A stretch of DNA of 64,000 nucleotides, taken from an uncultured Chlamydiales bacterium (GTDB lineage: Bacteria; Chlamydiota; Chlamydiia; Chlamydiales; FEN-1388). Below the pieces are notes generated by a model. The model had not been told where the DNA came from. It searched no databases and saw only the letters and a list, made by a program, of their open reading frames with translations. The position numbers and the translations under genes were made by a program. Within the stretch, counting starts at the first letter, position 1. Each line of letters starts with the position of its first letter. Positions 2,021 to 16,613 of the stretch are shown one piece after another. The stretch spans positions 78,167 through 142,166 of the forward strand of contig CAWAUW010000002.1 in assembly GCA_963785335.1 (NCBI GenBank), in the 5' to 3' direction.

Positions 2021-4312
2021 TTAACGCCCTCTTCTTTTGCTGCGGTTTTTATCTTTTTTTGGCCTTTGTGATCTAATGTCTGGTCTTTTCTTAGGCAAAC
2101 TTTGCCCACCTTCCATATCTGAATGGGAAATAAGCTGCCAAGAGCAGTCCTGCAGGATAAAATCGATATGCCGTACTGATACGCTCACTTTATCACCTGC
2201 TTTATAACTTAAGCCTTTATAGCGGCCTAAAAGCATCATTTCTTTTTCACTATAGTCAAAAAAGTCTTCATCAAGCTCAGACACATGCAAAAAGCCTTCT
2301 AGCATAAATTCAAGCACATCAAAATATATGCCAAATGGCTTTACGCGGGTAACTACGCCCTCAAAGGTGCGATAACGCTCATGCTGACAACTTGCCGAAA
2401 GAAGCCTTAACTTCTTTAAGAAGGTGACTCCACCTTCGGCTCTTGCAGAAATACGCTCTCTTTCTGAGGCATCATCACTTATTGCCTGAAGCTTGTCGCG
2501 GTCTATATTGCCTTCAAAAAGTAATCGATGAATTATTGTATCAACATAGCGTCGAATGGGGCTTGTAAAGTGAGTATAATGCTCGAGGCTAAGTCCATAA
2601 TGGCCAATGTTGTCAGGGGAGTAGCAGGCAAGGCGCATACTGCGGATATAACATGTGGCAAGATACTGTGCAGATCGTCCTTCGTCAAGTTCAGAAAAGA
2701 AGGCTTGAATATCTTGTGGAGTAGGATCTTGTGGCAAATTATACCCAAAAGCGCAAGCAAGAGTGGCAAATTCGCGAAGTGATTCTTTGGCAGGCTCTTC
2801 GTGCACTCTAAAAGTAGCATTTTTGCCTTGTTTTGTAAGGGCAATGGCTACAGTTTCGTTTGCTTTAAGCATAAATTCTTCGACTAGCTGGTGCGTAATG
2901 TCATACTCAATGATTTCTGTACCAAAAGGCACTCCTGATTCGTCTACCTTTACTTTAAATTCGGGCATAAAAAGCTGCACGCTACCACGCTCTGAGCGTT
3001 TTTTCTTTAGCAAGTAGCAAAGCTCAAGCATTTGGTGCAATTTTGGCTTGTGGATACTTTCTAATTCGCCATCTAGTACTTTTTTGGCCTGTTTGTACGT
3101 AAAGCGTTTTTGACTTTTGATTACGCTGCGTACTATACGATACTCTTTTACATCGCCCTGATCATCGATATGGATAAACACGCTCACAGTAAGACGCAAA
3201 ACACCTTCTCGCAGCGAGCAGAGATTGTCTGACAACTCTGAAGGCAGCATGGGTATGCATTTACCAGGAAAGTATGTTGAATTGCAGCGTAAAGAGGCTT
3301 CACGATCTAATGCGGACTTATCTTTTACATAGTGCGATACATCAGCAATATGTACGCCAAGTACATATAATCCTTTTTGCATTTCAAGAGAGATGGCATC
3401 GTCATAGTCTTTTGCAGTATCTGGGTCGATAGTAAAGCATTCAAGCTCTCTGAGATCTTCGCGGCCTTCAAGATCTTCCTTTTTAACGCGCGTGCCATAC
3501 GAAAGCGCTTCTTCAACAGCATCTTGAGGAAATTCAGTACGTAGTTCGTTTTCTAAAATTGCTGCAGGAATATCGGTAGCAGGATCTGATATGTTGCCGA
3601 TTATTTTTGAAAGCTCGCCCTGCGCGCCTTCTTCCTTATTTCCCCATTTATTAACATCAAGTAGCACCCTATCGCCAATAACGAGCTTTTTATCAATATT
3701 TGCTACTTCTACAGTGCGCTTTTCACCAAGCAAGCTGCAATAAGCAAAAGCTTTGTTATCTGCTACATCCGCAATGGTGCCAACGATGGTTTTACGTTTA
3801 CGGGAGATAATGGATAAGATTTTACCTTCTGGTCCTCTTTCGGAGACAGCTTCTAAATTAATGAGAACTTCAACGACATCGCCGTCAATAGCATCGTTTA
3901 CATAAGGTTTTGGGATAAAAACATCAGGGTCTTGAGAATTTTTAATAACAACAAAGCCAAAGCCTCTTGGGTGCATTTTGATGGTGCCCACGACTATTTT
4001 TTCTGTGACTTTATCATTTTCATCGGGAGCTACAAGTCTATTACCTGTTTCTGCTACTTTCCCGGCACCTTTAAGGTCTTTTAGCACTAGATCAAATATT
4101 TCAAGATGTTCAGGATGAATTTTTAGACGCTCAATGAGTGATTCTTTATCTTGAGGGGAATAGTGCCTTCCTTTGAGATACTCGTAGGTAACTTTAAGCA
4201 GGTTCTGGAAGAGACGTTCTTGTTTTGCGCTTCCCTTGTGAGCACTTGCGTTTTGAACGCTAACAGGAGAGCTTTGTGAAGTTTCGCCGCTTTTGCGACG
4301 TTTTTTGGGCAT
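2021..4312 (-). CDS. rnr: ribonuclease R (VacB/RNase II family)
   Basis: 763 aa. Cold-shock-like N-terminal region, RNB catalytic core (FTIDPDTAKDYDDAISL, HIADVSHYV, YFPGKCIPMLP, FTSPIRRYVD), C-terminal S1 domain and a Lys/Arg-rich tail. Confidence 0.95.
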   Translation of the reverse strand: MPKKRRKSGETSQSSPVSVQNASAHKGSAKQERLFQNLLKVTYEYLKGRHYSPQDKESLIERLKIHPEHLEIFDLVLKDLKGAGKVAETGNRLVAPDENDKVTEKIVVGTIKMHPRGFGFVVIKNSQDPDVFIPKPYVNDAIDGDVVEVLINLEAVSERGPEGKILSIISRKRKTIVGTIADVADNKAFAYCSLLGEKRTVEVANIDKKLVIGDRVLLDVNKWGNKEEGAQGELSKIIGNISDPATDIPAAILENELRTEFPQDAVEEALSYGTRVKKEDLEGREDLRELECFTIDPDTAKDYDDAISLEMQKGLYVLGVHIADVSHYVKDKSALDREASLRCNSTYFPGKCIPMLPSELSDNLCSLREGVLRLTVSVFIHIDDQGDVKEYRIVRSVIKSQKRFTYKQAKKVLDGELESIHKPKLHQMLELCYLLKKKRSERGSVQLFMPEFKVKVDESGVPFGTEIIEYDITHQLVEEFMLKANETVAIALTKQGKNATFRVHEEPAKESLREFATLACAFGYNLPQDPTPQDIQAFFSELDEGRSAQYLATCYIRSMRLACYSPDNIGHYGLSLEHYTHFTSPIRRYVDTIIHRLLFEGNIDRDKLQAISDDASERERISARAEGGVTFLKKLRLLSASCQHERYRTFEGVVTRVKPFGIYFDVLEFMLEGFLHVSELDEDFFDYSEKEMMLLGRYKGLSYKAGDKVSVSVRHIDFILQDCSWQLISHSDMEGGQSLPKKRPDIRSQRPKKDKNRSKRRGR

Positions 4313-4443
4313 ATTTTGTCTTGGTTAAGGTATTAAACTTTTAGTATAATTTTTACTATAAAGACAAATTATACCAGAATCCTGCCGAAAAGAAAAGGGT
4401 TTAATTTGTTTTTGATACATAGGCGAAGCCTTTGTGGCGTTGC

Positions 4444-4636
4444 TGCATAATTCACCACCGAGTCACAGAGCTCACTGAGATATTCGAGAAAACTGAGATT
4501 GCTTACCTAGACAATTAAGCAACTAAGACAGTATTCCGATTTGAAAATCTAGAGATTTAAATACCTAGTTGCCTATTAATTTTTCTCCCTATCTCATACA
4601 CCTCAGTGAGCTCAGTGACTCCGTGGTTATTTATGC
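4444..4636. repeat. long imperfect palindromic intergenic element (~190 bp)
   Basis: Left arm tgcataattcaccaccgagtcacagagctcactgaga pairs with right arm cctcagtgagctcagtgactccgtggttatttatgca. The inverted symmetry continues inward (tgagatattcgagaaaa / ttttctccctatctca). It ends 8 bp from the stop of the 4644 gene. Confidence 0.7.
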
Positions 4637-4643
4637 AACAAGG

Positions 4644-6527
4644 CTATTGTGGATTGCAGCAAACATTTGACCCAGCAACTGCAGGGCTTGCACCCGGCAC
4701 CTGGGAAGGACTTACGTTTGTGCAATTGTGCACGCTATTGTTGCAGCTTGTGTTAAAATATGTTTCTGTAAAACCGGCAAAAGAAAGAGAAATGCCTGAT
4801 CTTGAGCCCCATACGCTGTTACCTGAAAGGTGGTTAGCCTTTTGGTCTGCTACAACAATACCGTTTACAGTGTTGTCATAAACTAAGCAGTTTTCAATAG
4901 AATTTTTGTCGCCACCTGCGCCATTGTCAATAAAAATCCCGCTATCACCATTGAAGATATTGGAATTTTTGACTACGCAGCTGGTTGCATCAAGCAAATA
5001 AACGTTTACATTTGTGCCACCGGATATTTGGCATTCATCTAAAGTGATTTTGTCGCCCACTTCTATATACACCGTTCTTCCGTTGCTGCCTTTTATTATG
5101 CAGTCTCTTGCCACAAGGTTTGTATAAGGAGTGCAAGCAGGCATACCAAAGTGAACAGCTGCTGGTAAATAGCCATTGGGAATATCTAAAGAAGAGGTAT
5201 CTATCAGTAGATTTTCTAAAAGACATCCGCTGCCGCCAAGTATTAAAAATCCATCAAAGCCTTGCACCGCAGTTGTCTGTGTAAAATTTGAATTTTGTAT
5301 AGTAACATCATTTGCATTGTTGGTTGGATCGCAGCTTCCAAGCTGTACAATATTTAAGTTTGAAATAGGGGAGGCTACTGCAATGCAGTGGTCAATTAAA
5401 AGACCCGTTACATTAAGCACCTGAATGGTACCAAGCCAATTGGTAAATGTGTCATTTGTTACTATAATATCTCGTGAATCACCTTCAATATGGAGTCCAA
5501 AAGATGTTCTTGATGGATCAAAAGTCAGATCTGCACCTACAAATGCACAAGAGTCAATAGTTACACCGGTAGAGCCATTAATCCAAATTCCACCCCCATT
5601 TCCAGATCCTGCAAGAGTGGCAGGGCTTGGAAAGTTTATCTGAACGATGCCTTCATGAGCTTCTACGTGTGAGTACTGAACCAGTACATCTGATGAGTTT
5701 TCAATTTCAATACCGCGTGTGGTATTTTTGGTATAAATATTGTTAATGGTTGCCTTTTGTACATTAATCAAATGAACCGCTGCACTTGTAGGGGATCTGA
5801 AAATACTTGCGCCCTGTATAATATCATTTTCTAAGGTAAATTCTGATACATTTAAAGCTACAATACCTTGTGCTGCACTATCAGTTAATGTAAGGCTATG
5901 GTTTTCAAAATTTATACTTACGTTATCGGCGGTAACGGTAATAGCAGTTCCTGGTCCATTGTATGTTAAATCGCGTGTAACGCAGTATTTTCCTGGCGCT
6001 GTAATAATTATAGGCACATTGCTAATTGCCATTTCATTACTGCATGGAAACTGCGTCTCTAAAAACGTAAGAATTTCAGCAAGATCTCTTTTAATATCTA
6101 CACAGCAATTCTTAAATTCAGATTCAATTTTGCCAATATCACCGCAAATATCGCATTGACCAGAACTACCACTATGATTATGCGATACGTGCAAAACATC
6201 ATTTTGATAGGTCGCTGTAAGCAGCTGCTGCATAATTGAATGAGCTTTTCTTACCTTTTCAGGTGATGCATTTATACCAGCGCGAAGCACCATTTCCGTG
6301 CTTTTAAGAGCGGCTTTGATTTTATTTTGAATATCGGGATCTTTTATTTTTCTTCCCAATGTTTTGAGCTTGGCTCTTGATGCCTTAAGACTTGTAAGTG
6401 TTATAGGCGCATCTTTTTCACTTTTGGCTTTTGCACTTTCAGCAGTATCCGCCATGACCGTGGAGGCAGTACATACAGCTAATAGTACTGCTAAGAGGCT
6501 AAAATTTTTTCGAAAGTTGATGTTCAT
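4644..6527 (-). CDS. secreted parallel beta-helix repeat protein with conserved Cys motifs (paralog A, type 1)
   Basis: Signal peptide MNINFRKNFSLLAVLLAVCTASTVMA. Lys-rich helical region, CDICGDIG...CCVDIK...FPC motif, GKYCVT, then repeated NxxI/V beta-helix rungs. C-terminal FNTSCNNSVHNC...AGSNVCCNPQ. Start set at the ATG at 6527 (GAGGAA 6 nt upstream). Confidence 0.8.
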   Translation of the reverse strand: MNINFRKNFSLLAVLLAVCTASTVMADTAESAKAKSEKDAPITLTSLKASRAKLKTLGRKIKDPDIQNKIKAALKSTEMVLRAGINASPEKVRKAHSIMQQLLTATYQNDVLHVSHNHSGSSGQCDICGDIGKIESEFKNCCVDIKRDLAEILTFLETQFPCSNEMAISNVPIIITAPGKYCVTRDLTYNGPGTAITVTADNVSINFENHSLTLTDSAAQGIVALNVSEFTLENDIIQGASIFRSPTSAAVHLINVQKATINNIYTKNTTRGIEIENSSDVLVQYSHVEAHEGIVQINFPSPATLAGSGNGGGIWINGSTGVTIDSCAFVGADLTFDPSRTSFGLHIEGDSRDIIVTNDTFTNWLGTIQVLNVTGLLIDHCIAVASPISNLNIVQLGSCDPTNNANDVTIQNSNFTQTTAVQGFDGFLILGGSGCLLENLLIDTSSLDIPNGYLPAAVHFGMPACTPYTNLVARDCIIKGSNGRTVYIEVGDKITLDECQISGGTNVNVYLLDATSCVVKNSNIFNGDSGIFIDNGAGGDKNSIENCLVYDNTVNGIVVADQKANHLSGNSVWGSRSGISLSFAGFTETYFNTSCNNSVHNCTNVSPSQVPGASPAVAGSNVCCNPQ

Positions 6528-6549
6528 CCGCATTTCCTCAATAAAATTT

Positions 6550-8514
6550 TTATGGTGTGCAGCAAATATTTGATCCAGCAACAGCAGGAGAGGCTCCAGG
6601 CAATTGTGATGGACTTACACCAATACAGTTGGTGCTTGTGTTTTTACATGATGTATTAAAAAATAGCGCAGTTGTTGGTTCGCTACTTTCAATACCGAAA
6701 TTGCCATTAGCATGTACGCTATTGCCATTGATTTGATTTTTTTGCGCATACTGAGCAATCACAATTCCATTTTGAGCGTTATTGCTGATATCGCAAGTGA
6801 TAATAGCATTAGTATTTGCTCCTGGATTTATAAGAATGCCCGTACCAGTGCCTGCTGCATTTGTAATTGTTGAATCTTGAATAATGCATCCTTCAGCTCC
6901 AAAAATGCTCTGATGAAAGGTTGGGTCGACAGCCCCATCAAAAAAGACATTGGCCAAAGAAGCATCGGTAAATTGACTATTTGTAAAGGCAATGTAGGAA
7001 CCATTTTCAATAAACAAACCATACTGGTTTTCTCCTTTTACGATGCAAGAATCAGCTACAATATCGCTGAAAGCTAAAATAGGAGTACATACTACGTGAC
7101 CGTTAACAGCACAGCCTACATGTATGGCACCGGGAAAGTAGGGGTTTACATTGCCATCATTTACCGTGGTAACATCCACAATAACATTTTGTAACAGACA
7201 TCCTGAGCCATTCAAAAATAGCAGACCATCAAATCCTGGAACGGCTGTATTTTGGATAAAACTTGAGTTTTGTATTGTGATATCATTTGCAGCCGTTGTT
7301 GCAGTTCCTAGCTGCAACAAATTGCTGTTAGAAACAGGGGAGGCAACAGCCAAGCAGTCCTGAATCTGCATTCCAGTAACTTCATTTATGGTAAATGTGC
7401 TCATCCAGTTGTTAAAACTGCTTGTTTTAACCATAACAGCACTTGACGCGCCCTGTACCAAAATGGCGTTGGAGGCTTCGTTATTACCTGGAGCAAGTCC
7501 AGCGCCAGCAAATGTGCAGCTATCAACTACCACACTTGTTGAACCATCAATTAAAATACCAGCTCCTATACTTGCAGCTGTTGGTACAGATGTACCTTCA
7601 TGGGTATTTAGCAAAGAGTTTTGCACAAGTACATCGTTAGAATTTAGGATATGCACACCTTTTGTAGTGTTAAAGGTATATATGTTTTTAAGTGTTGCCT
7701 TTTGAACATCTATAAGAGATACAGCTGCACTTGTTGGCGTTTTAAAAATTGAAGATCCTTGGATGATGTCATTTTCGAGTGTAAACTCAGATACATCCTG
7801 TGCCAGAACGCCCACTGCAGTGCTATCGTTAATGGTAAGAGAGTGATTGTGAAAGTTTATGCTAACATTATTAGCAGCCACCGTAATAGCCGCGCCGGCT
7901 CCATTGTAGACTAGATTTGTTGTAACGCAGTATTTACCAGAAGTGCGTATGACTATAGGAACACTGGAAATTGCAATTGGGGCACTGCACGGAAAATCTG
8001 CTTCTAATACACTTAAAATATTAACAAGTCCGCTTGTAACGTCTTTACAGCAGCCAGAAACATCGGATTTAAGTTCGCTAAGATCTGAACAAATATCACA
8101 TGATGATGAAGAACTTGAAGAAGAGGTAGAAGAGGTAGAAGAAGAGGAAGAATCGCTGGAGCTACTTTTGTGATGACTTTTTTTCTGTTTTATCTTGCTT
8201 GTAGCCTTTTGAACAGCATTTAGAGCCTTTTTTACTGCTTCTGGTTTTGCCTTAGGACCTGCTTTAAGCACTGCAGTGGCATGCTTTAAAATACTGTGAA
8301 CCGCTTTTTTTGTGTTTGGATCAGCAATCTCTATAGACAACCTTTCAAGGCGAGGCACATCAAGTTCAAGTGTTGCAAAAGTGACTCTTTTTTGATCAAA
8401 GGCCTTGGAATGAGCTTTTGAAGCCTCTGGTGCAGCTTGCAATACTTGCGTAGTTGTAAAAATTGCAATAAGCACTGCTATAAAGTGGTATTTTTCTTGC
8501 GAAAAGATATTCAT
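6550..8514 (-). CDS. secreted parallel beta-helix repeat protein with conserved Cys motifs (paralog B, type 2)
   Basis: Signal peptide ending VLQA. 25-aa Ser tract. CDICSDLSEL...CCKDV...FPC, GKYCVT, beta-helix rungs, tail FNTSCKNTSTNC...AGSNICCTP. Three tandem ATGs lie at 8514/8517/8520 and the start choice is uncertain. The stop is 20 nt upstream of the paralog A start. Confidence 0.8.
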   Translation of the reverse strand: MNIFSQEKYHFIAVLIAIFTTTQVLQAAPEASKAHSKAFDQKRVTFATLELDVPRLERLSIEIADPNTKKAVHSILKHATAVLKAGPKAKPEAVKKALNAVQKATSKIKQKKSHHKSSSSDSSSSSTSSTSSSSSSSSCDICSDLSELKSDVSGCCKDVTSGLVNILSVLEADFPCSAPIAISSVPIVIRTSGKYCVTTNLVYNGAGAAITVAANNVSINFHNHSLTINDSTAVGVLAQDVSEFTLENDIIQGSSIFKTPTSAAVSLIDVQKATLKNIYTFNTTKGVHILNSNDVLVQNSLLNTHEGTSVPTAASIGAGILIDGSTSVVVDSCTFAGAGLAPGNNEASNAILVQGASSAVMVKTSSFNNWMSTFTINEVTGMQIQDCLAVASPVSNSNLLQLGTATTAANDITIQNSSFIQNTAVPGFDGLLFLNGSGCLLQNVIVDVTTVNDGNVNPYFPGAIHVGCAVNGHVVCTPILAFSDIVADSCIVKGENQYGLFIENGSYIAFTNSQFTDASLANVFFDGAVDPTFHQSIFGAEGCIIQDSTITNAAGTGTGILINPGANTNAIITCDISNNAQNGIVIAQYAQKNQINGNSVHANGNFGIESSEPTTALFFNTSCKNTSTNCIGVSPSQLPGASPAVAGSNICCTP

Positions 8515-8654
8515 CATCATCTTCCTTTTCTAGATATGTAAAATATTGGACAGGCAAGGCAAAATATGCGCCAGATCCCATATTACGCACAATGAACAAT
8601 CAGGCAATAAATTTGAACTATTATTTTATATTTTTTCCTCAGAAGCACGAGTTA

Positions 8655-8850
8655 GGTGCCCGGTCCAATCCCGTTCACTTAATCAAAATTTCAAGGCGAT
8701 AAAAATGATAGAACGATAGGAACGATAAAACGATGAAACATAAAAAACAAATTGTTGATAGCTTATCCAACGCTAAAACTAGGACAGCTCTTTTTCTTTT
8801 TCATCGTTTTTATCGTTCTATCGTTTTATCGTTTTATCGTTTTTACTATT
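8655..8850. repeat. palindromic intergenic element, GATAAAACGAT-word family
   Basis: Arms gcgataaaaatgatagaacgataggaacgataaaacgatgaaa (8697-8738) and ttcatcgtttttatcgttctatcgttttatcgttttatcgttttt (8800-8845). The centre and the left flank (ccgttcacttaatcaaaat) are homologous to the inner part of the 10439-10821 element. Confidence 0.75.
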
Positions 8851-8862
8851 AAAAGGTAGGGC

Positions 8863-10359
8863 CTAAAGCACGCTTTCCAACGAGCTATTTAAAATGTGTT
8901 CTTGCAAAAGACTTTTTTCTCGAAGTTTCTCCTGCCAGTAATGAAGTGCAAATTCAAGCACGGTAATAAGTTGATCCCCAAAGGCAATCATGCCATATCG
9001 CTGCTGCCGAAGGGCTCTAACTAACTCCTCAAGATTTATAATCAAAGTTTCAAGTGATGCTGCCTTGTCCATAAGCTGCTTTAAGAGCAAGCAGGCAAAT
9101 ACTGTGCCAGTCCTGCCATAACCACTCATGCAATGAATAACTGTTTTGCCGGGATTGGCCTTTTCAAGCTCACCAAGTGTTTGCAAAAAAGGCAGCAGCC
9201 GTAAAAGCGTAATGCCGTGCCCATCTACCCAGTCAAGTTGTATCTGATAAACTGTTTTATCATTAATCTGAAACTTGCGCTTAGAGCTTTTATTTAAGGG
9301 GTCAATATCACAGCTTGTACATGATACAGTTATGTTGTCATCATATTTTACCGAGTCATCTTTGTTTTGTGGAAAATAGCCCTTTTTATTCATTTCCTTT
9401 ACCATAACAATTACTGAAACATCGTTATCTAGTATATACTTCCAAAATTGCAAATATTGCCCTTCTTCAGGCTCTTCAGCAGCAATGCGAGTGCGATTAT
9501 CCAGACATTTGATAGGGCTTGCACCATAAAGTTCACAAACATTATGCGTAAATACACTGCCAAAATCTCCCGTCCTTTTCCAATTATTGTCTTCATGCCA
9601 TCCTTCTCGAAAAAGTAATCGGTCTAAAGAAGTTTCTGTCCATCTCTTATTTTGTAAATCATCTAATGAATAACAATGTCTACTCATTTTTTGTGAACTA
9701 AGCACCCCTTGATAATGAGTCCTATCAACTGAAGATTCAGGTTCTTTTGCTACAATCGCTACCAAAGGCATTTGCCTTTGTAAAGAACATACAAGGCCCT
9801 TAAAACTACTAACAGGCCAAGGATCAAGTTCTCCTGAAAGCGTTCCCTTTAGATTAAGTGCGCTCAAAGATGTAAGAGCTTTCCAATGGCGCTCATAAGG
9901 AGCGGTGTGCAAATGCGATCTTTCTAAACAAAGATACTGCAATTTCTCAAAGGCAGAAGGAATTTGCAAAAAATCGCCAACTATCTGGGCGTTGATAATA
10001 GTAAGCGATGTTAGTGTTGTAACAGCTTTTTTTTCTGGAAAAGCCACTACCTTTCCTACATCTGCATCATCTTTACCACGCAGCGAAAGCTCCTGAAGCT
10101 TGCTGCACGTCAAAAATACACTAAGCGGAAGATCGCATGTCATATGAAGTGCTACATCAATAACTTGAACCACATTTGCAAGCTTTACAAGTGGTATAAA
10201 ATGATCAGGCGTTAAGGGCATTTCAATAAAAAGATGGGTAACTGTTTTTAACCGGTCATAATAAGTAGGCAAATTAGCAAGCGTTTCGTCTTTGGGAATG
10301 CGCACTTCAGAGGGTTCTGTAATTGTTAAAGTTGCTAACGCTTGTGTTGCTTCAATCAT
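8863..10359 (-). CDS. leucine-rich-repeat protein fused to a classical protein tyrosine phosphatase domain
   Basis: The N-terminal half has LRR-like LxxLxL units (LQELSLRG, LTSLTIIN, LQYLCLERS, LSALNLKG). The C-terminal half has the PTP signature VIHCMSGYGRTG (HCx5R[ST]) and a WPD-like loop LDWVDGHG. Start set at ATG 10359; the ORF track begins at an upstream TTG at 10377. Confidence 0.8.
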   Translation of the reverse strand: MIEATQALATLTITEPSEVRIPKDETLANLPTYYDRLKTVTHLFIEMPLTPDHFIPLVKLANVVQVIDVALHMTCDLPLSVFLTCSKLQELSLRGKDDADVGKVVAFPEKKAVTTLTSLTIINAQIVGDFLQIPSAFEKLQYLCLERSHLHTAPYERHWKALTSLSALNLKGTLSGELDPWPVSSFKGLVCSLQRQMPLVAIVAKEPESSVDRTHYQGVLSSQKMSRHCYSLDDLQNKRWTETSLDRLLFREGWHEDNNWKRTGDFGSVFTHNVCELYGASPIKCLDNRTRIAAEEPEEGQYLQFWKYILDNDVSVIVMVKEMNKKGYFPQNKDDSVKYDDNITVSCTSCDIDPLNKSSKRKFQINDKTVYQIQLDWVDGHGITLLRLLPFLQTLGELEKANPGKTVIHCMSGYGRTGTVFACLLLKQLMDKAASLETLIINLEELVRALRQQRYGMIAFGDQLITVLEFALHYWQEKLREKSLLQEHILNSSLESVL

Positions 10360-10438
10360 TTGATAACCTTTTCCCAAATTTTAGCGGGTGATAATAGGGG
10401 ATTTACCAATAAAACTGCACATAAATTAATTATAAATA

Positions 10439-10821
10439 GGGGTCAGGTCTGGATGAAACGAATAGCTCTTTAAAGAATAACATCAACGAATTTATCCCCC
10501 GAAATCTACTCCTTTTTTTTCCGCAGCCGTGCAATACCGTTCACTTAATTAAAATCTAGAGAGAAAAAAATGATAAAAACGATAGAACGATAATAACGAT
10601 AAAACATAAAAAATTAAATTTCTTAACAGCTCATCTGCCGCTAAAATCTTAGTCATTTTTTATCGTTTTTATCGTTCTATCATTCTATCGTTTTACCTTT
10701 GATAGTAGAATTAATTGAACGGTATTGCGCTGCCGTGGGAACAACAGAACCAAATCTAGGAGGATTTTAGAGAGAAAAACCATCTTGTTTTAGGCTATTT
10801 GTTTCACTCCAGGTCTGGGGC
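10439..10821. repeat. composite nested palindromic element (three layers)
   Basis: Outer layer: ggggtcaggtctggatgaaacgaatagc / gctatttgtttcactccaggtctggggc. Middle layer: ccgcagccgtgcaataccgttcacttaatt / aattaattgaacggtattgcgctgccgtggg. Inner layer: the GATAAAACGAT-word palindrome shared with 8655-8850. Confidence 0.8.
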
Positions 10822-10837
10822 TGTTAAACATTAAAGT

Positions 10838-11551
10838 TTATTGCTTGCAGCAGGATGCGATTGCTTCTTTTAAATCAGGTATTGCTAATAAGGCGCGAAA
10901 GTGTGCTTCAAGATCTGGAATCTGAAGTTTCATTTCTCGTTCTTGATTTTGGGACCAGGTATTGTTTTTAATATCATTAAAAAACAAAGGGACTTCTTCG
11001 TTTTGTTTAAGCCAGCCGCTTTGGCTGATGATCTCAGAAAACTGACGAGCGCTAATCACGTCTGTGACATTGCGCAAGTCTTCAACTTTTTTATTTAACC
11101 ACTCCAAGCATTGCTTTGGTGTGCTTATGCTAAGTGCACTTTCTATCAAAGCTGTAATGTACTGACCATTGAAACGAGTAATTGGATTTTCAATACCATA
11201 CCAGGTCTTCCAAATAGTATATTGAATCATAGTAATACAAAGTTTTGGATGATCCTTTATTTTATCAAGCGGCACTGCTGCAAATTTGCTATTTTCATAC
11301 CTATACTCTTTTGCATTTCGCTCTTCTTCTCTTAGTGTTCCAGGTTCAGATTTTTTAGGAGCACAAGCTGCTTCATATATAGAATAAGTCGTCTTTTCTA
11401 AATTGCCAAAGCTAACGCAACGCCTAAGGGCTGGTTTTTTTACATGTGCTTCTTGCTCATTTTCAAAACTTTCACTGCGCTTAAGCGCAGATTTTTTCGG
11501 TGCGACCTGGTAAACAGAACTTGCTGCCGACTGTAAAGATACAGAACTCAA
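10838..11551 (-). CDS. hypothetical protein (237 aa)
   Basis: Long ORF with a TTG start preceded by GGGG. I recognise no domain. The N-terminus carries duplicated ALKRSESFEN / ALRRCVSFGN motifs. Confidence 0.55.
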   Translation of the reverse strand: MSSVSLQSAASSVYQVAPKKSALKRSESFENEQEAHVKKPALRRCVSFGNLEKTTYSIYEAACAPKKSEPGTLREEERNAKEYRYENSKFAAVPLDKIKDHPKLCITMIQYTIWKTWYGIENPITRFNGQYITALIESALSISTPKQCLEWLNKKVEDLRNVTDVISARQFSEIISQSGWLKQNEEVPLFFNDIKNNTWSQNQEREMKLQIPDLEAHFRALLAIPDLKEAIASCCKQ

Positions 11552-11638
11552 AATAAAACCCCAATAATTTGAGCAATCATAGCATTTCTTACAATAAACG
11601 CACAGTTATTTTTTGATTTTATTTTAATTTCAGAACAT

Positions 11639-12085
11639 CGGGGTCAGGCATTACGACATTCTATAGTTTGGAATGTGAATGTCAGGCCTAACCCAATGTT
11701 GACCCAATGTTTGACCCAAATGTTCATGTTGGGAATCAGGCCTAGGGTGAAACAAATTGAAGATATTCGAAGAAAGCTTTGTCAATTTCCCCTTGATTGT
11801 TGTCCTGAAAGGACAAATTTATTAATAGCCCATGGTAAAACCGTGGGTATAGTTATAAATGAAGATTGAGTCGCTTCGCGACGACTTAATAAATGGGGAG
11901 TAGAATGTTAAGTTAAAATAATAAGCCCCCCTGAAACGACTTAATTTTATTTTACAATAATACCCACGGTTTCACCGTGGGCTATTAATAATTTTGTCCC
12001 TACAGGACAAAAGGCTTTCGTAGTTTGGAAACATAAAAAATCAGAAGCAAATGAACATTGACATTGAACATTGGGGTAACCTGTT
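11639..12085. repeat. composite nested palindromic element in a divergent intergenic region
   Basis: Outer word repeats: acccaatgttgacccaatgtttgacccaaatgttcat / atgaacattgacattgaacattggggt. Inner arms: ttgtcctgaaaggacaaatttattaatagcccatggtaaaaccgtgggtat / atacccacggtttcaccgtgggctattaataattttgtccctacaggacaa. It contains the shared motif cctagggtgaaacaaat. Confidence 0.7.
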
Positions 12086-12176
12086 TCTTTGCTGACGTAA
12101 AAACAAAGAATCTTCATACTTCCTTTATACTTTTATGCGATAAATTTATTAATGTTTATTTAAATAAGGCAATACT

Positions 12177-12572
12177 ATGCAACCATTACAAACAGTAGGA
12201 CAAAGCGGATATGTACCTGAAGCTGAAAAAGTACCTGAAGATGTTCTAAAGGCATTTCAAAAATCTTGCGGAACCTCAGGTGTAAGCATTCTAAAAGCTA
12301 TTGTAAACGTAATTCCTGAAGCTATGAGTATAAGATTTGTGAATACAATTGGTGTTCATGAAATGCACTTTGACTATCCAAACGGGGCAAAGTGCCTTGC
12401 GTGCATGAATGCAATTAATACACTCAATATGCCTTCTGATGCCTGGAAAGTCCTACTACGGAAGACTAACGATAATGTTGTAATCGTAGGATTTACTACT
12501 GAGAGCTTTAGTGACATGGTTAGAATAACTCATTATGGCAATTATGGCAGTCATAACAATATTATAATCTAA
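12177..12572 (+). CDS. hypothetical protein (131 aa)
   Basis: ORF with AAGG upstream of the ATG. No recognisable motif. Confidence 0.45.
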   Translation: MQPLQTVGQSGYVPEAEKVPEDVLKAFQKSCGTSGVSILKAIVNVIPEAMSIRFVNTIGVHEMHFDYPNGAKCLACMNAINTLNMPSDAWKVLLRKTNDNVVIVGFTTESFSDMVRITHYGNYGSHNNIII

Positions 12573-12620
12573 GAGAATTATACAAACTATATGGGGCTAG
12601 ATTCAGTGGTTTCTTTAAAG

Positions 12621-12646
12621 TAAAAAGCGGAGCCCTAGGCTCCGCT
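12621..12646 (-). terminator. stem-loop with a T-run on the minus strand, downstream of paralog C
   Basis: agcggagcc-cta-ggctccgct, flanked by aaaaa on the plus strand, which reads as a U-run for the minus-strand transcript. Confidence 0.5.
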
Positions 12647-12663
12647 AAATGTTAACTAAAAGT

Positions 12664-14556
12664 TTAAGTACCCTCTGAATTACAACAAATGTTAGATCCA
12701 GCCAGTGCCGGATAATCTCCGGGATTTTGTGCAGAGTCTACATTTATGCAATTGGTGCTATTGTTGCAAGCCGTATTAAAATAGGCTTCAACCGGTGTAC
12801 CTGAAGGAAATGATATTCCAGTAGAATTGTTATAGACACTGTTTCCAGAAATATGGTTGCCTGCACTGTCAACTACATTTATACCTACCGTTGAACAGTT
12901 AAAAATTTGACAATTCATAATAGCATTCTTTCCTGTAGTGTTAAGATAAACTCCTACTTCTCCTCCAGAAATAACACAATCCTTCACAACACAAGCTGCA
13001 GCATCTCTCATCTCTACGGTTCTAAAGAATGAAGAAAGCTGACTATTTTCGACAGTGACATTTCTGCCAGCATCAATATATAAAGTATTTGTATTAAAAC
13101 CTTTGATGATAGACTGTCGCACCAGTACATTGCTGTATAGCGCACATTCAGCAATGCCTATATGCAAAGCAGCTGCGCTATAGCCTTCAGTGCCAAATGA
13201 AGATGAGTCTACCACAACATTTTCAATCAGGCAGCCAGCACCATTTGCTAAAAGAATGCCATCAAAATCAATGACTTCTGTAGGATACTTTTTGAAGGTT
13301 GAATTTCTGATGATGGCATCATTTGCAGTATGGGTTTCATCACAATCACCAAGCTGCACAAAGTGAAATGATGAAAAAATATTGGCTTTTACAACGCAGT
13401 GGTCAATCAATAGTCCCTCTACCTGCAATACATTGATAGTGCAAAACCAGTCAAAGAAACTACTGTTAAATATAGAGATATTTTCTGAGGCCAACTCTAC
13501 GTGAATAGCGGTATTCGTTCGAAAAGGATTATAATTTTCAATAGTGGCCGACTGAAAAGTACATGCATCTACAGTAACACCAGTAGAGCCCGCTATCCAG
13601 ATACCCGCACCATTGCCAGATCCGAGCACCAAAAAGCTAGCTGTTGTAGATGGGGGAGGAGTAAGATCTGAGCTTTCATGTGCCTCAAGTAACGAATGCA
13701 GCACTTCAATATCAGTTGAATCTTCTATAAAAATACCTCGGGTAGTATTTTTAGTATAAAGATTTTTAAGCGTTGCTTTATTAACCCTTACCAAATGAAC
13801 TGCAGCACTTGTTGCTGTTTGAAAGATTGTAGAGCCCTGAATGATATCGTTTTCCAGCGTAAATTCACTTACGTCTTGGGCCACGATGCCTTGGGCTAAA
13901 TTATTAGTTAAAGTCAGACTATGATTATGAAAATTAATGGTTACATTATCGGCAGTAACCAAAATGGCTGTGTTTGGGCCATTATACACTAAATCGGTAG
14001 TAACGCAGTACTTACCAGATTCAGAAATAATAACCGGAACCGTGTTAATAACCTTGGTCATCTCACACGGAAATTGTGTTTGCAAAAACTCTAAGAGCTC
14101 AGTAAGTTCATGTTTAATGTCTTCACAGCATTCTTCAAAATCCGAAGCAAGCTCGCTTAGATCGCTACAGGCATCACATGATGATGATGATGAGCTATGC
14201 AAATGAGTCTGCTGCTTTTGCGCTCCAAGCACGGCAATTACTTTTTGAACGCTAGAAAGAGCATTCTTGGTTGTCTCGAGTGTAGCATTTTTACCAGCTC
14301 GACCTACTTGAGCTGCACTTTTAAGTGCTTCTCTAATAATTTTTTGTAATTGAGGATCTTTTACATTTTTTGCCTTAGATTTAAGGCGCGCAACAGCACC
14401 TTCTAGTGAAGTTGCCGTGCGAATTTTCTCTTTATGAAGAGGGTTTGGATCTTTTGCAAAATTTCTGGCAGGTACAGCCTGAAGCTGTGCAGCCATAGTT
14501 ACCGCGCCTAATAGCATAGCTAAAAAGCGAATTTGTGTACAAAAATTGGTGTTCAT
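12664..14556 (-). CDS. secreted parallel beta-helix repeat protein with conserved Cys motifs (paralog C, type 1)
   Basis: Signal peptide MNTNFCTQIRFLAMLLGAVTMAAQLQA. Ser tract, CDACSDLSEL...CCEDIK...FPC, GKYCVT, beta-helix rungs, tail FNTACNNSTNC...AGSNICCNSEGT. Its C-terminal half is most similar to paralog A. Confidence 0.8.
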   Translation of the reverse strand: MNTNFCTQIRFLAMLLGAVTMAAQLQAVPARNFAKDPNPLHKEKIRTATSLEGAVARLKSKAKNVKDPQLQKIIREALKSAAQVGRAGKNATLETTKNALSSVQKVIAVLGAQKQQTHLHSSSSSSCDACSDLSELASDFEECCEDIKHELTELLEFLQTQFPCEMTKVINTVPVIISESGKYCVTTDLVYNGPNTAILVTADNVTINFHNHSLTLTNNLAQGIVAQDVSEFTLENDIIQGSTIFQTATSAAVHLVRVNKATLKNLYTKNTTRGIFIEDSTDIEVLHSLLEAHESSDLTPPPSTTASFLVLGSGNGAGIWIAGSTGVTVDACTFQSATIENYNPFRTNTAIHVELASENISIFNSSFFDWFCTINVLQVEGLLIDHCVVKANIFSSFHFVQLGDCDETHTANDAIIRNSTFKKYPTEVIDFDGILLANGAGCLIENVVVDSSSFGTEGYSAAALHIGIAECALYSNVLVRQSIIKGFNTNTLYIDAGRNVTVENSQLSSFFRTVEMRDAAACVVKDCVISGGEVGVYLNTTGKNAIMNCQIFNCSTVGINVVDSAGNHISGNSVYNNSTGISFPSGTPVEAYFNTACNNSTNCINVDSAQNPGDYPALAGSNICCNSEGT

Positions 14557-14579
14557 TATAGATTCCTTGTATAAATTTT

Positions 14580-16430
14580 TTAATCTTCTATTGGGCAGCA
14601 AACGTTAGATCCTGCTTCAACACCATCGTTTGGTGCTTGCGCTGGATTTACTCCTATGCAGTTTGAAAAGAAGTTATTGCATGAGGTGTTAAAATAAGTT
14701 TCAGTGGTTGCACTTTGATTAAAAATACCATTAGAATTACCAAAAACGCGATTACCTCTAACTTGGTTACTAAAACAAGAAGTATCAATATAAACGCCTG
14801 CATTTCCGCTATTTGTAACTTCGCAGTTTACTATGGCATTGCTCCTGGCAAAATCATCCATAACCACTCCAAACTCACCACCATTTGCAATAAGTGAATC
14901 TTTAATTTGGCAAAAAATAGCTCCGCCTGATTCTCCTCCGCCTTCAAGAAGTACATTTATAAGAGCCGCATCTGTAAATTGGCTATTTGTAAAGGTGATG
15001 TTAAATCCATCTTCAACATAAAGCCCAAAAAGATTTTGCCCACGTACAATGCAATTTATCCCAAGTAAATCGCTATAGGTTAAATGGGGATCACAATCAC
15101 CATTTGCACCGCAGCCAATGTGAAAAGCTGCAGGTAAATAGCTACCTTCACCTTCTGATCCTGAAGTAACATCTACAATTACATTATCAAGCAAGCAGCC
15201 TGAACCTTGATAAAAAAGTAATCCATCAAATTCAGGTATAAATGTATTTTGTATAAATGTTGCATTTCTAATGAGTACATCATTTGCTAGCTCACCCTCA
15301 TTAAAACCACCTATTTGAAGAAGACTTAAATTACTCATTGGAGAAGCAATTGCCAAGCAGTCTTCGATAATAAATCCTGTAACTTGCAAGGCGCTAATTG
15401 AAGTCATCAAGTTTGTAAAAGTATTATTTGACAAAGTGACATTTGCACTATTTGCAAAAATTGATGCACCAATAGATTCGATAGACTCAGCACTACCATC
15501 AAATATGCTGCTATCAATTCTAACGCCGGTGGATGATTCAATGGCAAGGCACACTTCATGAAATTTCATAAACGAATGTTCAACCAATACATCAATTGAA
15601 TTTACGATATTAATGCCAAATGTGGTGTTAAGGGTGTAAATATTACTGAGAGTTGCTTTGTTTACATTTTCAAGATGAATTGCCGCACTTGTAGCTGTTT
15701 GAAACAAGCTTGAGCCTTGAATGATGTCATTTTCGAGGGTAAACTCATTTACATCTTGTACGAGTATGCCTTGGGCATTTGGATCAAGCAGGGTAAGGCT
15801 GTGATTTTCGAAATTAATCGTAACATTATCAGCCTGCACTATAATTGCAGTTGCAGCACCAAAATAGGTAAGATCTTTTGTAACGCAGTATTTACCAGAC
15901 TCAAGTATGGTAAAGGGCACATGATCAATAGCTATTGATGCACCGCATGGAAACTCAGCTTGCAAAACTTCAAGAATATCTAAAATTTCTGCCTTAATTG
16001 CTTTACAGCAGTCATCAATTTCAGATTCAAGCTCGCTAAGCTCTGAGCAAACATTGCACGATGATGAAGATGATGAGCTTGAATGTCTTGCCTTCTTTTG
16101 TTTAAGATATGTCATGGCTTTTTGGACTGTACTTAAAGCCTTTTTTACTGCTTCAGGCTTGGCTTGTCTTCCTGCTTTAATAATTTTTTCTGCATGTTTA
16201 ATGACTTCTTTTACATTTTTGATGGTGGCAGCATCCTGGACACCTTGCATGAGCCTTGAAAGACGTGGCACGTCAGCTTCGAGAGTACCAAGTGTAATTT
16301 TATCTTGGTCATGAAACGCTATTTTGTGACTTTTATGCTTAACATCTTCGTGAGGCCCAGCTTGCAGTGTACTTGATGCCACAACAGCCCCTAAGAGCAT
16401 TGCAGCAAGGCAGAATTTTCCTATATTCAT
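14580..16430 (-). CDS. secreted parallel beta-helix repeat protein with conserved Cys motifs (paralog D, type 2)
   Basis: Signal peptide MNIGKFCLAAMLLGAVVASSTLQA. AKPEAVKKAL helix as in paralog B, SSSSSSSS, CNVCSELSEL...CCKAIK...FPC, GKYCVT, tail FNTSCNNFFSNC...AGSNVCCPIED. The stop is 21 nt upstream of the paralog C start. Confidence 0.8.
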   Translation of the reverse strand: MNIGKFCLAAMLLGAVVASSTLQAGPHEDVKHKSHKIAFHDQDKITLGTLEADVPRLSRLMQGVQDAATIKNVKEVIKHAEKIIKAGRQAKPEAVKKALSTVQKAMTYLKQKKARHSSSSSSSSCNVCSELSELESEIDDCCKAIKAEILDILEVLQAEFPCGASIAIDHVPFTILESGKYCVTKDLTYFGAATAIIVQADNVTINFENHSLTLLDPNAQGILVQDVNEFTLENDIIQGSSLFQTATSAAIHLENVNKATLSNIYTLNTTFGINIVNSIDVLVEHSFMKFHEVCLAIESSTGVRIDSSIFDGSAESIESIGASIFANSANVTLSNNTFTNLMTSISALQVTGFIIEDCLAIASPMSNLSLLQIGGFNEGELANDVLIRNATFIQNTFIPEFDGLLFYQGSGCLLDNVIVDVTSGSEGEGSYLPAAFHIGCGANGDCDPHLTYSDLLGINCIVRGQNLFGLYVEDGFNITFTNSQFTDAALINVLLEGGGESGGAIFCQIKDSLIANGGEFGVVMDDFARSNAIVNCEVTNSGNAGVYIDTSCFSNQVRGNRVFGNSNGIFNQSATTETYFNTSCNNFFSNCIGVNPAQAPNDGVEAGSNVCCPIED

Positions 16431-16613
16431 CTTCGTTTTTCCTTTGGTAGTTGATTCGATAAAAAAAGCGGCGATCTTCAAAAACAAACACGCCGGTTGG
16501 TGGTGAGAATGGATAATTGGCGAATTATTTTGTACAAAGATTTTATACCAATTTCAAAAAAACTGCAGACTTTGCTACACTTCATGGTCACTACACTATT
16601 TAAGGCAAGCCTC

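Follow-up and report, generated by a model that had tools for sequence, protein, structure and literature searches.

The proteins described here have their closest known counterparts among proteins of the pectin-lyase-fold or CASH class (Pfam Beta_helix, PF13229, clan CL0268), the chlamydial Pmps, phage tailspikes and depolymerases, giant-virus β-helix proteins, and periplasmic or secreted β-helix proteins such as AlgG, AlgE and NosD. The PF13229 label denotes a fold or repeat class and not a function. Pmps are multi-copy, fast-evolving, Sec-dependent, β-helical and Cys-containing proteins, and they have been reported to form hetero-oligomers. In a 64,000-nucleotide stretch of DNA from an uncultured Chlamydiales bacterium (the window), four genes, A to D, encode proteins that resemble the Pmps in all of the former traits. 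With the CASH class they have in common profile matches above cut-off, and a predicted single-stranded right-handed β-helix that has ladders of Asn and Gly, a helix as its N-terminal cap and a further cap at the C-terminus. What distinguishes them from that class is apparently Cys-stapled caps, a three-helix module with a poly-Ser tether, and an obligate operon in which a type 2 gene is followed by a type 1 gene.

The region consists of two bicistronic operons of ancient origin, one in which D is followed by C and one in which B is followed by A. ORF calls and translation yield four intact genes on the minus strand that encode paralogs of 616-654 residues. Genes D (14580..16430; 616 aa) and B (6550..8514; 654 aa) are the upstream, type 2 members of their pairs, and genes C (12664..14556; 630 aa) and A (4644..6527; 627 aa) the downstream, type 1 members; all four also match a β-helix profile and carry the family motifs, and A and B were modeled with AlphaFold2 (AF2). 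The start codons are likely to lie at 6527 (A), 8514-8520 (B, where in-frame ATGs are also found at 8517 and 8520), 14556 (C) and 16430 (D), as judged from the spacing of ribosome-binding sites, with AAGGA 9 nt before the ATG of D; the end coordinate 16487 initially proposed is merely the TTG of the longest ORF. Measured from stop codon to ATG, the spacers are 22 nt for B-A (6528..6549, minus strand; GAGGA 7 nt ahead of the A start codon) and 23 nt for D-C (14557..14579, minus strand; AAGGA 7 nt ahead of the C start codon), and not 20 and 21 nt as stated in the earlier note. The spacing between D and C suggests translational coupling. A terminator-like hairpin with a 9-bp stem, 7 GC pairs and a T-rich tail (12626..12646, minus strand), 18 nt past the C stop codon, probably ends the D-C operon, and an inverted repeat directly past the A stop codon (4437..4644; 53-nt arms, 81% complementary) possibly ends the B-A operon.

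The two operons are separated by a lineage-specific insert of 4.1 kb (8521..12663, minus strand) that lies outside the β-helix family and harbors a tyrosine-phosphatase gene (8863-10377; Pfam Y_phosphatase, E 1.6e-23), an orphan gene (10838-11551) and palindromic repeat elements; the earlier note was silent on it. The corresponding gap between C and B is 166-168 nt in the relatives L009 and L001 and 4.2 kb in L007, at the same junction and with different genes. The neighbors of the locus are leuS, rnr, the phosphatase gene and orphans, the flanks being chlamydial housekeeping genes, and the host lineage of the family is uncultured chlamydial.

All four proteins are built in the same order, with a signal peptide, a three-helix module, a poly-Ser linker, a Cys-bearing helix, a right-handed β-helix of ~440 residues and a Cys tail. 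They are 44-51% identical in pairs over ~600 aligned residues, with at least 130 invariant columns, each scores >1000 bits against the family HMM, well beyond chance, and CxxC, CC, FPC, GKYCVT and a poly-Ser run are present in every one, in agreement with their first description as motif-sharing paralogs in two minus-strand pairs. Signal peptides are predicted at residues 1-24 of D (cleavage between TLQA and GP), 1-27 of C (QLQA and VP), 1-27 of B (VLQA and AP) and 1-26 of A (TVMA and DT), with a charged n-region, a 12-aa hydrophobic core (KD 2.2-2.7) and AXA-type cleavage sites, from which we infer Sec-dependent export. The Lys-rich three-helix module (A residues 44-112; 6192..6398, minus strand) is modeled by AF2 as helices 44-60, 64-86 and 89-112 with pLDDT 78-88; in B it has a weak FIVAR-like Pfam match (E 4e-4, under the gathering cut-off), and the sequence AKPEAVKKAL is found in B and D only. 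Since the module is missing from the type 1 genes of L002, L006, L007, L008 and L009, it cannot be a universal dimerization element. The poly-Ser linker, longest in B, is followed by an amphipathic helix that carries CxxC, then CC, then FPC (A residues 125-162; 6042..6155, minus strand) and is interpreted as capping the N-terminal end of the β-helix (A residues 166-603; 4719..6032, minus strand). The best-conserved part corresponds to rungs 165-295, with 58-64% identity between paralogs. The C-terminal tail, FNTSCNN..NC..V.P.Q.PG...AGSNVCC in A (residues 591-627; 4647..4757, minus strand), conforms in all four proteins to the family motif FNT[SA]C.N..NC..V...Q.P...AGSN[IV]CC.

In contrast with Pmps, the four proteins have no C-terminal β-barrel and stop 2-5 residues past the CC motif, and they contain only 0-1 GGA[ILV] and 2-3 FxxN motifs each. 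No Autotransporter or Pmp profile (Chlam_PMP, PF02415) matched them at E<=0.1. The few repeats, missing barrel and missing profile match led us to reject them as members of the Pmp family, of which they are analogs at most. A hydrophobic C-terminal segment was not found in any of them, and β-barrel, lipobox and known anchor are all missing, which provides no evident means of surface attachment.

Profiles and models agree on the predicted fold. PF13229 matches all four proteins with 57-84 bits (58.6 for D; cut-off 25.9), and the AF2 models of A and B (whole-model pLDDT 83.7 and 81.1, respectively) contain a β-helix of regular three-strand rungs with pLDDT >90. The PDB matches listed by Foldseek are all right-handed β-helices, except 8egr_B, a phage upper-tail structure retrieved with A, and the search gives generic carbohydrate-active β-helices, with TM <=0.45 and identity <=14%. 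Nearly all significant PDB fold neighbors bind or cleave carbohydrate, including tailspikes, capsule depolymerases, AlgE, AlgG, FdlA and the adhesin PfbA. At the sequence level, PDB matches are limited to AlgG (E ~1e-3, over ~70 residues of generic repeats) and NosD (E 0.75), and no family-specific profile scored above its cut-off in the profile searches of the four proteins. The earlier view that these are exported β-helices devoid of an autotransporter barrel holds, and so does its failure to recognize a named family: the profile, sequence and fold searches give only generic β-helices, and the proteins belong to none of the named families, enzyme families included, in any specific way.

Pairing is conserved among the relatives. 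In 18 of 18 pairs from 12 sources, a type 2 gene precedes a type 1 gene with a gap of 1-30 nt, and these pairs occupy at least five genomic contexts that have no other neighbor in common. No close-family gene was found alone among the relatives examined. The synteny comparison advocated in the earlier note thus bears out the conserved pairing, and the independent occurrence of the two types, which according to that note would speak against its proposal, was not seen. The pair moves between contexts as one and may be regarded as a putative functional unit. Raw identity separates the types only marginally (51% for B/D and 49% for A/C, versus 44-47.5% across types). Phylogeny does so robustly once eight long-branch sequences are removed, with 198 of 200 bootstraps in favor of the split, against 86 of 200 when they are included; the assignment of B and D to type 2 and of A and C to type 1 is thereby upheld. 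A bicistron of type 2 followed by type 1 as the duplicated unit is likewise supported. The clades of D, C, B and A (six members) are found in 123, 200, 186 and 197 of 200 bootstraps, respectively. The duplication, first described as segmental, is ancient rather than recent, because metagenome-assembled genomes of other, uncultured Chlamydiales have an ortholog of each of the four genes, with the order leuS, D-C-B-A, rnr conserved, and because the DNA of the paralogs is <=72% identical. The family evolves fast relative to its surroundings: orthologs are 39-61% identical to the β-helix proteins of the window, and the third, short pairs of L010 and L011 30-41%, against 80-87% for the flanking LeuRS and RNase R in the same comparison.

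Our best guess is that this undescribed family serves in sugar binding or adhesion. The reading that we favor, tentatively and with somewhat less than even confidence, is that of an exported, co-translated and probably hetero-oligomeric pair that is glycan-binding or adhesin-like and non-catalytic. The two types would be translated together from one mRNA and act as a pair, most likely as a hetero-oligomer, in the periplasm, at the cell surface or after secretion; a heteromer of type 2 and type 1 is plausible. In each protein, a disordered poly-Ser tether would join the three-helix module to the amphipathic, Cys-bearing helix that caps the β-helix, and two intramolecular disulfides would hold its C-terminal cap. 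The pair would bind glycan or another ligand of the host or the envelope by way of the polar face that is conserved on rungs 165-295. Such a role would be functionally analogous to that of Pmp passenger domains or of the receptor binders of phage tailspikes. Several observations sit uneasily with an adhesin-like pair, among them the polar patch of the close family, the solitary distant relatives, the missing anchor, the type 1 proteins devoid of the three-helix module and the small number of Cys-loss events.

A serious rival, which we nevertheless consider rather unlikely, is that the proteins are secreted polysaccharide-active enzymes of the pectin-lyase fold, such as lyases, glycosidases or epimerases, that cut or modify a glycan, be it that of a protist host or the bacterium's own, with two specificities or two consecutive steps divided between the types. 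All PDB fold neighbors other than PfbA and NosD are enzymes or enzyme-type tailspikes, secreted enzymes that act on carbohydrates typically have poly-Ser linkers, and the weak match to AlgG is accompanied in C by one to Pect-lyase_RHGA_epim (PF12708; 22.7 bits, below the cut-off of 27). In the close family, moreover, a polar patch made of H210, E229, E233, D235, K258, D280, H291 and E292 is at least 90% conserved and could be an active site. However, the columns that are conserved among 94 distant members consist almost entirely of Gly, Asn, aliphatic residues, Pro or Tyr. Of the polar residues, H210 (70%) and D186 (63%) alone exceed 60%, and E229, E233, D235, H291, E292 and H459 each fall below that level; the wider superfamily has no acidic or His catalytic set in common. 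The syntenic B and A orthologs of L007 and L009 have other residues in place of E233 and D235, and the catalytic motif of alginate epimerases was not identified in the four proteins. The distance in structure and sequence from the enzymes of known fold and the missing family-specific match also argue against catalysis, and enzymes of this sort do not usually come in strict heterotypic pairs. As for membership of a well-characterized enzyme family, which the earlier note would have held against its own reading, no family-level match was found.

That intermolecular disulfides link the two types with one another and with the envelope, as part of a lattice like the chlamydial outer-membrane complex, seems improbable to us. 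The Cys content of 2.8-3.3% and the chlamydial host lineage are in line with such a lattice, and the earlier note had seen in the terminal Cys motifs a suggestion of cross-links. Co-occurrence among 124 superfamily members nevertheless favors intramolecular staples, with phi values of 1.00 for C595/C624, 0.97 for C602/C623 and 0.73 for C162/C182; we infer that the tail cysteines form two disulfides within the chain, C595-C624 and C602-C623, that staple the C-terminal cap, and their use as intermolecular cross-links is unlikely. The N-cap cysteines (CC..FPC..C) are also found in P0245, a signal-less relative whose contig is giant-virus-like or eukaryote-like, and they are thus a feature of the fold rather than of the chlamydial envelope. 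The only candidates that remain for intermolecular bonds are the helix cysteines C125, C128, C141 and C142, which sit on a low-confidence helix; C128 is missing in most orthologs of the A clade, which leaves an odd cysteine. In L007 and L009, the CC, FPC and GKYC cysteines are gone from B as well as from A, but they are still present in the D-C pairs of these two genomes; the L010 and L011 pairs have lost them in each of their two members. This joint loss by the two partners may reflect co-evolution at the level of the pair, in two or three independent events only, and would suit cross-linking; yet several lineages have dropped most cap cysteines and retain the pair, and OmcA, OmcB and MOMP-type profiles of Pfam and NCBIfam have no match in the four proteins.

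It is still less probable that the paralogs are independent of each other and have only their regulation in common. Their adjacency would then stem from tandem duplication and common promoters, and the two types would be coupled neither physically nor functionally. L001 has tandem arrays of up to six β-helix genes, L002 has an additional type 1 copy, and distant members of the superfamily occur as single genes, which speaks for such a history; against it, no lone gene of the close family was found, and the order of the types is invariable despite the diversity of contexts and ~45% identity between types. Finally, a NosD-like role in the periplasm, as accessories to an ABC transporter or to the assembly of copper-sulfur clusters, to which the NosD profile PF05048 (25-51 bits, cut-off 23.6) and the presence of NosD among the fold matches might point, is effectively refuted and has a negligible probability, since the PF05048 match reflects generic CASH repeats, the equivalog TIGR04247 is missed by far (21-31 bits, cut-off 300), and no nosF, nosY, nosL, nosZ or ABC-transporter partner is found among the neighbors that match ORFs of the window or are common to the loci examined.

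The nearest structural parallels come from viruses. The best PDB fold neighbors are tailspikes and depolymerases of similar length, Dettilon gp208, HK620, Sf6, CBA120 TSP3, K64-1 S2-4 and K1 lyase (E ~1e-5), from which the four proteins differ by their low similarity and by their signal peptides; no PHROG matched them, there is no phage context around them, and no relatives were found in IMG/VR. The wider superfamily (219 representatives at E<=1e-30) includes Klosneuvirus-type proteins, and the top match over the PDB and viral fold libraries is A0A1V0SKK2 of Klosneuvirus KNV1, annotated 'NosD' (E 6e-19, target TM 0.79, 20% identity). Another giant-virus β-helix protein that resembles the four is a 'pectin lyase' of Fadolivirus. 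The metagenomic P0245 is 27% identical over 504 columns, including its N-cap; the surroundings of P0245 and P0269 are giant-virus-like or eukaryote-like, and the contexts of L015 and L016 hint at a giant virus. Signal peptide, three-helix module and Cys tail, as found in the chlamydial proteins, are missing from the viral-type ones, which often have a Lys-rich end. A bolder proposal, to which we give little credence, is that the pair is an obligate heterodimeric, disulfide-stapled adhesin, a barrel-less substitute for Pmps in this chlamydial lineage that would have its ancestry in common with surface-fiber or attachment proteins of the Klosneuvirus type. Were it true, intracellular bacteria and giant viruses with the same protists as hosts would have exchanged a host-attachment module.

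The four paralogous β-helix genes lie on the minus strand of the window. Their longest open reading frames (ORFs) span positions 4644-6581 (A; ATG at 6527, 627 aa), 6550-8520 (B; three consecutive ATGs at 8520-8512 with AAGGAA ahead, 654 aa), 12664-14601 (C; ATG at 14556, 630 aa) and 14580-16487 (D; ATG at 16430, 616 aa). Shine-Dalgarno sequences, GAGGA or AAGGA, can be read in the DNA 7-9 nt 5' of the ATGs of A, C and D. D-C and B-A are two intact operons, whose stop-to-start spacers measure 22 nt (B-A) and 23 nt (D-C), rather than the 20 and 21 nt reported in the earlier note. The proteins can be aligned end to end, with identities of 44-51% and more than 130 invariant columns, and all the motifs previously listed for them were found. 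CxxC, CC, FPC, GKYCVT and a poly-Ser run are common to A-D, AKPEAVKKAL is confined to the upstream, type 2 proteins (B and D) and the tail FNT[SA]C.N..NC..V...Q.P...AGSN[IV]CC leaves 2-5 residues before the stop. Their N-termini have a charged n-region and a 12-residue hydrophobic core (mean Kyte-Doolittle value 2.2-2.7), followed by AXA-type cleavage sites positioned by eye, VMA|D in A, LQA|A in B, LQA|V in C and LQA|G in D. These predicted signal peptides argue for Sec-dependent export of all four proteins, which have neither a second hydrophobic segment nor a lipobox. Lipoprotein anchoring was rejected for the family at large, as no lipobox is consistent and an LGGC-like site is present only in L004_5015 and P0019, two relatives. 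In the 64-kb window, no fifth family copy was detected by HMM scan, and the Rfam search returned neither rRNA nor tRNA.

Close relatives of these proteins are few. Only 23 came out of 5.8 billion proteins searched with a profile, every named one being a 'Chlamydiales bacterium' MAG protein, and 185,579 scanned species genomes yielded 11 loci (L001-L011), all in uncultured Chlamydiales MAGs, one of which is labelled Verrucomicrobia. By HMM scan these loci contain 33 family ORFs, to which the window adds 4. On the coding strand, the gene order is D C B A in the window, L007 and L009, D C D C B A in L001, D C D C in L008, D C in L006, B A in L003, L004, L005, L010 and L011, and B A A in L002. Type 2 precedes type 1 (the downstream gene, A or C) in 18 of 18 pairs from 12 sources, including the window, with gaps of 1-30 nt within pairs and of 10-408 nt between them, except in the window and L007 (~4.1-4.2 kb). 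The array is flanked by a divergent leuS and by rnr in the window, L002, L005, L007 and L009; in L004 it adjoins leuS, and the contig stops inside the A gene, short of any rnr. Elsewhere, pairs occupy no fewer than four further contexts (L003, L006, L008 and L010/L011), and no dedicated accessory gene coding for a chaperone, secretin or Dsb protein is common to their surroundings across contexts. The heterotypic gene pair is conserved and behaves as a unit. Neither type occurs without the other in close relatives, and only distant superfamily members that cannot be assigned to a type stand alone. The six-gene array of L001 (JAFEGT010000023.1) belongs to the MAG labelled Verrucomicrobia, a label also borne by an RNase R (P0034) sharing 82% identity with that of the window. 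In both cases the sequence is probably chlamydial and wrongly binned or labelled. A search with the window RNase R gave Chlamydiales or Verrucomicrobia-labelled MAGs at 77-83% identity, the next matches being at 69% or less.

In a neighbour-joining tree, the family separates into four orthologous clades with one window gene each (bootstraps of 200/200 for C, 186/200 for B, 123/200 for D and 197/200 for a six-member A clade). The pairing of B with D and of A with C, first drawn from their C-terminal halves, is recovered in 198/200 bootstraps without eight long-branch sequences and in 86/200 with them. Together with the invariable gene order, the four clades indicate that it was a type 2-type 1 bicistron that duplicated, as had been proposed. 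In contrast, a recent segmental duplication or gene conversion was rejected, since even the best-conserved stretch of paralog DNA does not exceed 72% identity, with nothing to suggest recent conversion, and every paralog has orthologs of its own. The duplication is, judging from the tree and these identities, older than the divergence of these chlamydial lineages. While LeuRS and RNase R, encoded on either side of the array, share 80-87% identity between the window and the MAGs, the β-helix orthologs are 39-61% identical to the window proteins, and the third, short pairs of L010 and L011 30-41%. The family thus evolves markedly faster than its neighbours, at an estimated pace of about twice that of these housekeeping proteins.

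Between the two operons of the window lies a tyrosine-phosphatase gene (8863-10377, minus strand) coding for a 504-aa protein without signal peptide, with a C-terminal Y_phosphatase domain (Pfam E-value 1.6e-23) whose HCMSGYGRTG sequence fits the C(X)5R motif; its N-terminal region is leucine-rich-repeat-like by eye and has no profile match. The gene is flanked at 8663-8850 and 10494-10765 by direct copies of a palindromic element of AACGATA-like heptamers, which has just these two copies in the 64-kb window, and the whole looks like an inserted effector-type cassette. The insert also harbors an orphan ORF (10838-11551, minus strand, 237 aa) with no Pfam, NCBIfam or PHROG match and, in the non-coding stretch between it and gene C, an inverted repeat (11800-12010) whose two arms of 92 nt are 79% complementary and separated by 27 nt. 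At the same C-to-B junction, L007 has a different insert of 4.2 kb (3898-8089) that by eye contains genes for a P-loop protein (GAPGAGKS), an endonuclease/exonuclease/phosphatase-like protein and three orphans, and this site looks like a hotspot where accessory genes insert. Elsewhere in the window, leuS (16497-19137, plus strand) is broken into ORFs of 592 and 300 aa, whereas relatives have a single ORF of ~840 aa. Around 18246 it reads GTA CTT G CAT CTT TTA where a conserved 16-residue motif requires GTA CTT CAT, which implies that one G was inserted: either this essential gene is frameshifted or the assembly is in error. A 355-aa ORF (537-1604, minus strand) with weak ankyrin-repeat matches under the cut-offs (E-values 0.004-0.01) may represent another eukaryote-like effector candidate.

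As to function, the reading that we tentatively prefer is that type 2 and type 1 proteins would assemble into an exported hetero-oligomer, adhesin-like or glycan-binding, that would act in the periplasm, on the cell surface or once secreted. AlphaFold2 models of A and B built from family alignments (pLDDT 83.7 and 81.1, respectively) have the same layout, in which the signal helix is followed by three helices (A 44-112), a disordered Ser-rich segment, a long lower-confidence helix with the CxxC and CC motifs and ~440 residues of very confident β-helix rungs, onto the last of which a short C-terminal segment folds back. A-D score 57-84 bits with Pfam Beta_helix (gathering score 25.9) and match no Pmp, autotransporter or Omc profile in Pfam, in keeping with the initial description of β helices devoid of an autotransporter barrel. 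In PDB sequence searches the three-helix module matched nothing significantly, its best hits being designed helical proteins and Emb (E-values 0.1-0.8), and its FIVAR match in Pfam is under the cut-off. With Foldseek, nearly all PDB matches are carbohydrate-active or -binding β-helix proteins (E-values ~1e-5, TM scores up to 0.45, identities up to 14%), including phage tailspikes, capsule depolymerases, the epimerases AlgE and AlgG, the fucoidan lyase FdlA, GH87, GH110, inulin fructotransferases, NosD and the adhesin PfbA.

Such a list also invites a serious though less likely alternative, that these are secreted polysaccharide-active enzymes; yet the searches matched no characterised family of enzymes with its catalytic residues intact. 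The best-conserved region, rungs 165-295 (numbering of A), has 58-64% identity between paralogs versus 32-50% in the rest of the helix, and its polar set H210, E229, E233, D235, K258, D280, H291 and E292 is at least 90% conserved over 24 close-family sequences. Among 94 distant members the conserved columns are almost all Gly, Asn, aliphatic, Pro or Tyr, H210 (70%) and D186 (63%) being the only polar residues that stand out, and in L007 the syntenic B/A orthologs have other residues in place of E233 and D235. We read this polar face as a changeable surface that would bind a ligand or partner rather than as a fixed active site.

The disulfide cross-linked envelope lattice put forward in the earlier note is improbable in light of how the cysteines co-vary over 124 superfamily members. 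Of these members, 74 have all four tail cysteines and ~44 have none of them, rare partial patterns being C595+C624 (three members) and C602+C623 (two). Their co-occurrence (phi 1.00 for C595/C624 and 0.97 for C602/C623) is characteristic of two disulfides within one chain that would staple the C-terminal cap. C162 of FPC and C182 of GKYC (phi 0.73), often the sole N-cap cysteines, suggest a third internal bond. In this putative disulfide map of A-D, the terminal motifs would most simply be capping staples and not links between proteins. C141 and C142 (phi 0.88) each co-occur with C125 (phi ~0.65), and most A-clade orthologs have another residue at C128; these four cysteines, on a helix modelled with low confidence, are the only candidates for intermolecular bonds. 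Cys-count parity was discarded as a test for such bonds, because buried core cysteines make it uninformative.

That A-D might be independent paralogs, merely co-regulated, is a still more doubtful proposition. CC, FPC and GKYC have been lost from both B and A in L007 and L009, while D and C of the same genomes keep them, and from both pair members in L010 and L011; such joint losses, in only two or three independent events, point to coupling at the level of the pair. A NosD-like role can hardly be entertained, as A-D match the generic NosD/CASH domain in Pfam but score 21-31 bits against a cut-off of 300 with the NosD subfamily model TIGR04247.

Beyond the paired forms, HMMER retrieved 219 proteins at E-values up to 1e-30 and 2,734 up to 1e-10 in an exhaustive scan of 1.84 billion cluster representatives. 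Many are 450-700 aa long and match from the FPC/GKYC helix start through the tail, and their names, where any, are generic ('parallel beta-helix repeat protein'). Two distant members placed on contigs are both single, unpaired genes, and a protein search with 72 distant members added no named organism. A 482-aa distant member (P0299) lies on the same 1.1-Mb contig as the D-C-D-C array of L008, and thus paired and more distant forms coexist in one genome. A sub-group has no signal peptide and Lys-rich C-terminal tails, and two such signal-less homologs, at 6001-7452 of contig L015 and 5009-6508 of contig L016 (GC 43-46%), have giant-virus-like or eukaryote-like neighbourhoods, and these contigs may be viral. 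One such context is a 287-kb contig with aminoacyl-tRNA-synthetase genes, a WD40 gene and many orphans; in the other, the relative adjoins GMC-oxidoreductase, F-box and BTB genes. Consistent with these contexts, the best match in either fold library, PDB or viral, is a protein of Klosneuvirus KNV1 (BFVD A0A1V0SKK2; E-value 6e-19, target TM score 0.79, 20% identity), the next viral matches being proteins of Fadolivirus, Barrevirus, Hyperionvirus and other Klosneuvirinae. A is 27% identical to the signal-less relative P0245 over 504 columns and has the CC..FPC..C N-cap cysteines in common with it; an IMG/VR scan with the close-family alignment gave no match. This distribution suggests that the β-helix family has been exchanged between Chlamydiae and giant viruses or protists, and the homology and common Cys N-cap make it a testable case of gene exchange within the same protist hosts. 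Similarly, the co-variation of the cysteines supplies a disulfide map open to direct experimental check.

To our knowledge, environmental chlamydiae mostly do not have the well-studied adhesins of pathogenic Chlamydia, and we know of little on their means of attaching to protist hosts and entering them. The family is a concrete candidate for host interaction, given its predicted export, its fast evolution, the strict pairing maintained across relocations and its carbohydrate-recognising fold relatives. Databases already name relatives 'right-handed parallel beta-helix repeat-containing protein', and the fold is known. In the literature we found no description of the family, its Cys-stapled caps, its strictly ordered two-gene unit or its distribution over chlamydiae and giant viruses, nor is the family described in a general work on outer-membrane prediction (PMC2811131). 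The sole PDB sequence match is a repeat-level one of 70 residues to AlgG (E-value ~1e-3), and PHROG has no match for A-D. Profile, fold and sequence matches all being generic, no characterised family covers A-D, which agrees with the first impression that they do not belong to a named one. Membership among the Pmp proteins, autotransporters, NosD, tailspikes or Omc proteins fails in each case on a defining feature. Compared with chlamydial Pmp proteins, A-D contain the characteristic repeats in small numbers, GGA[ILV] occurring 0-1 times and FxxN 2-3 times per protein.
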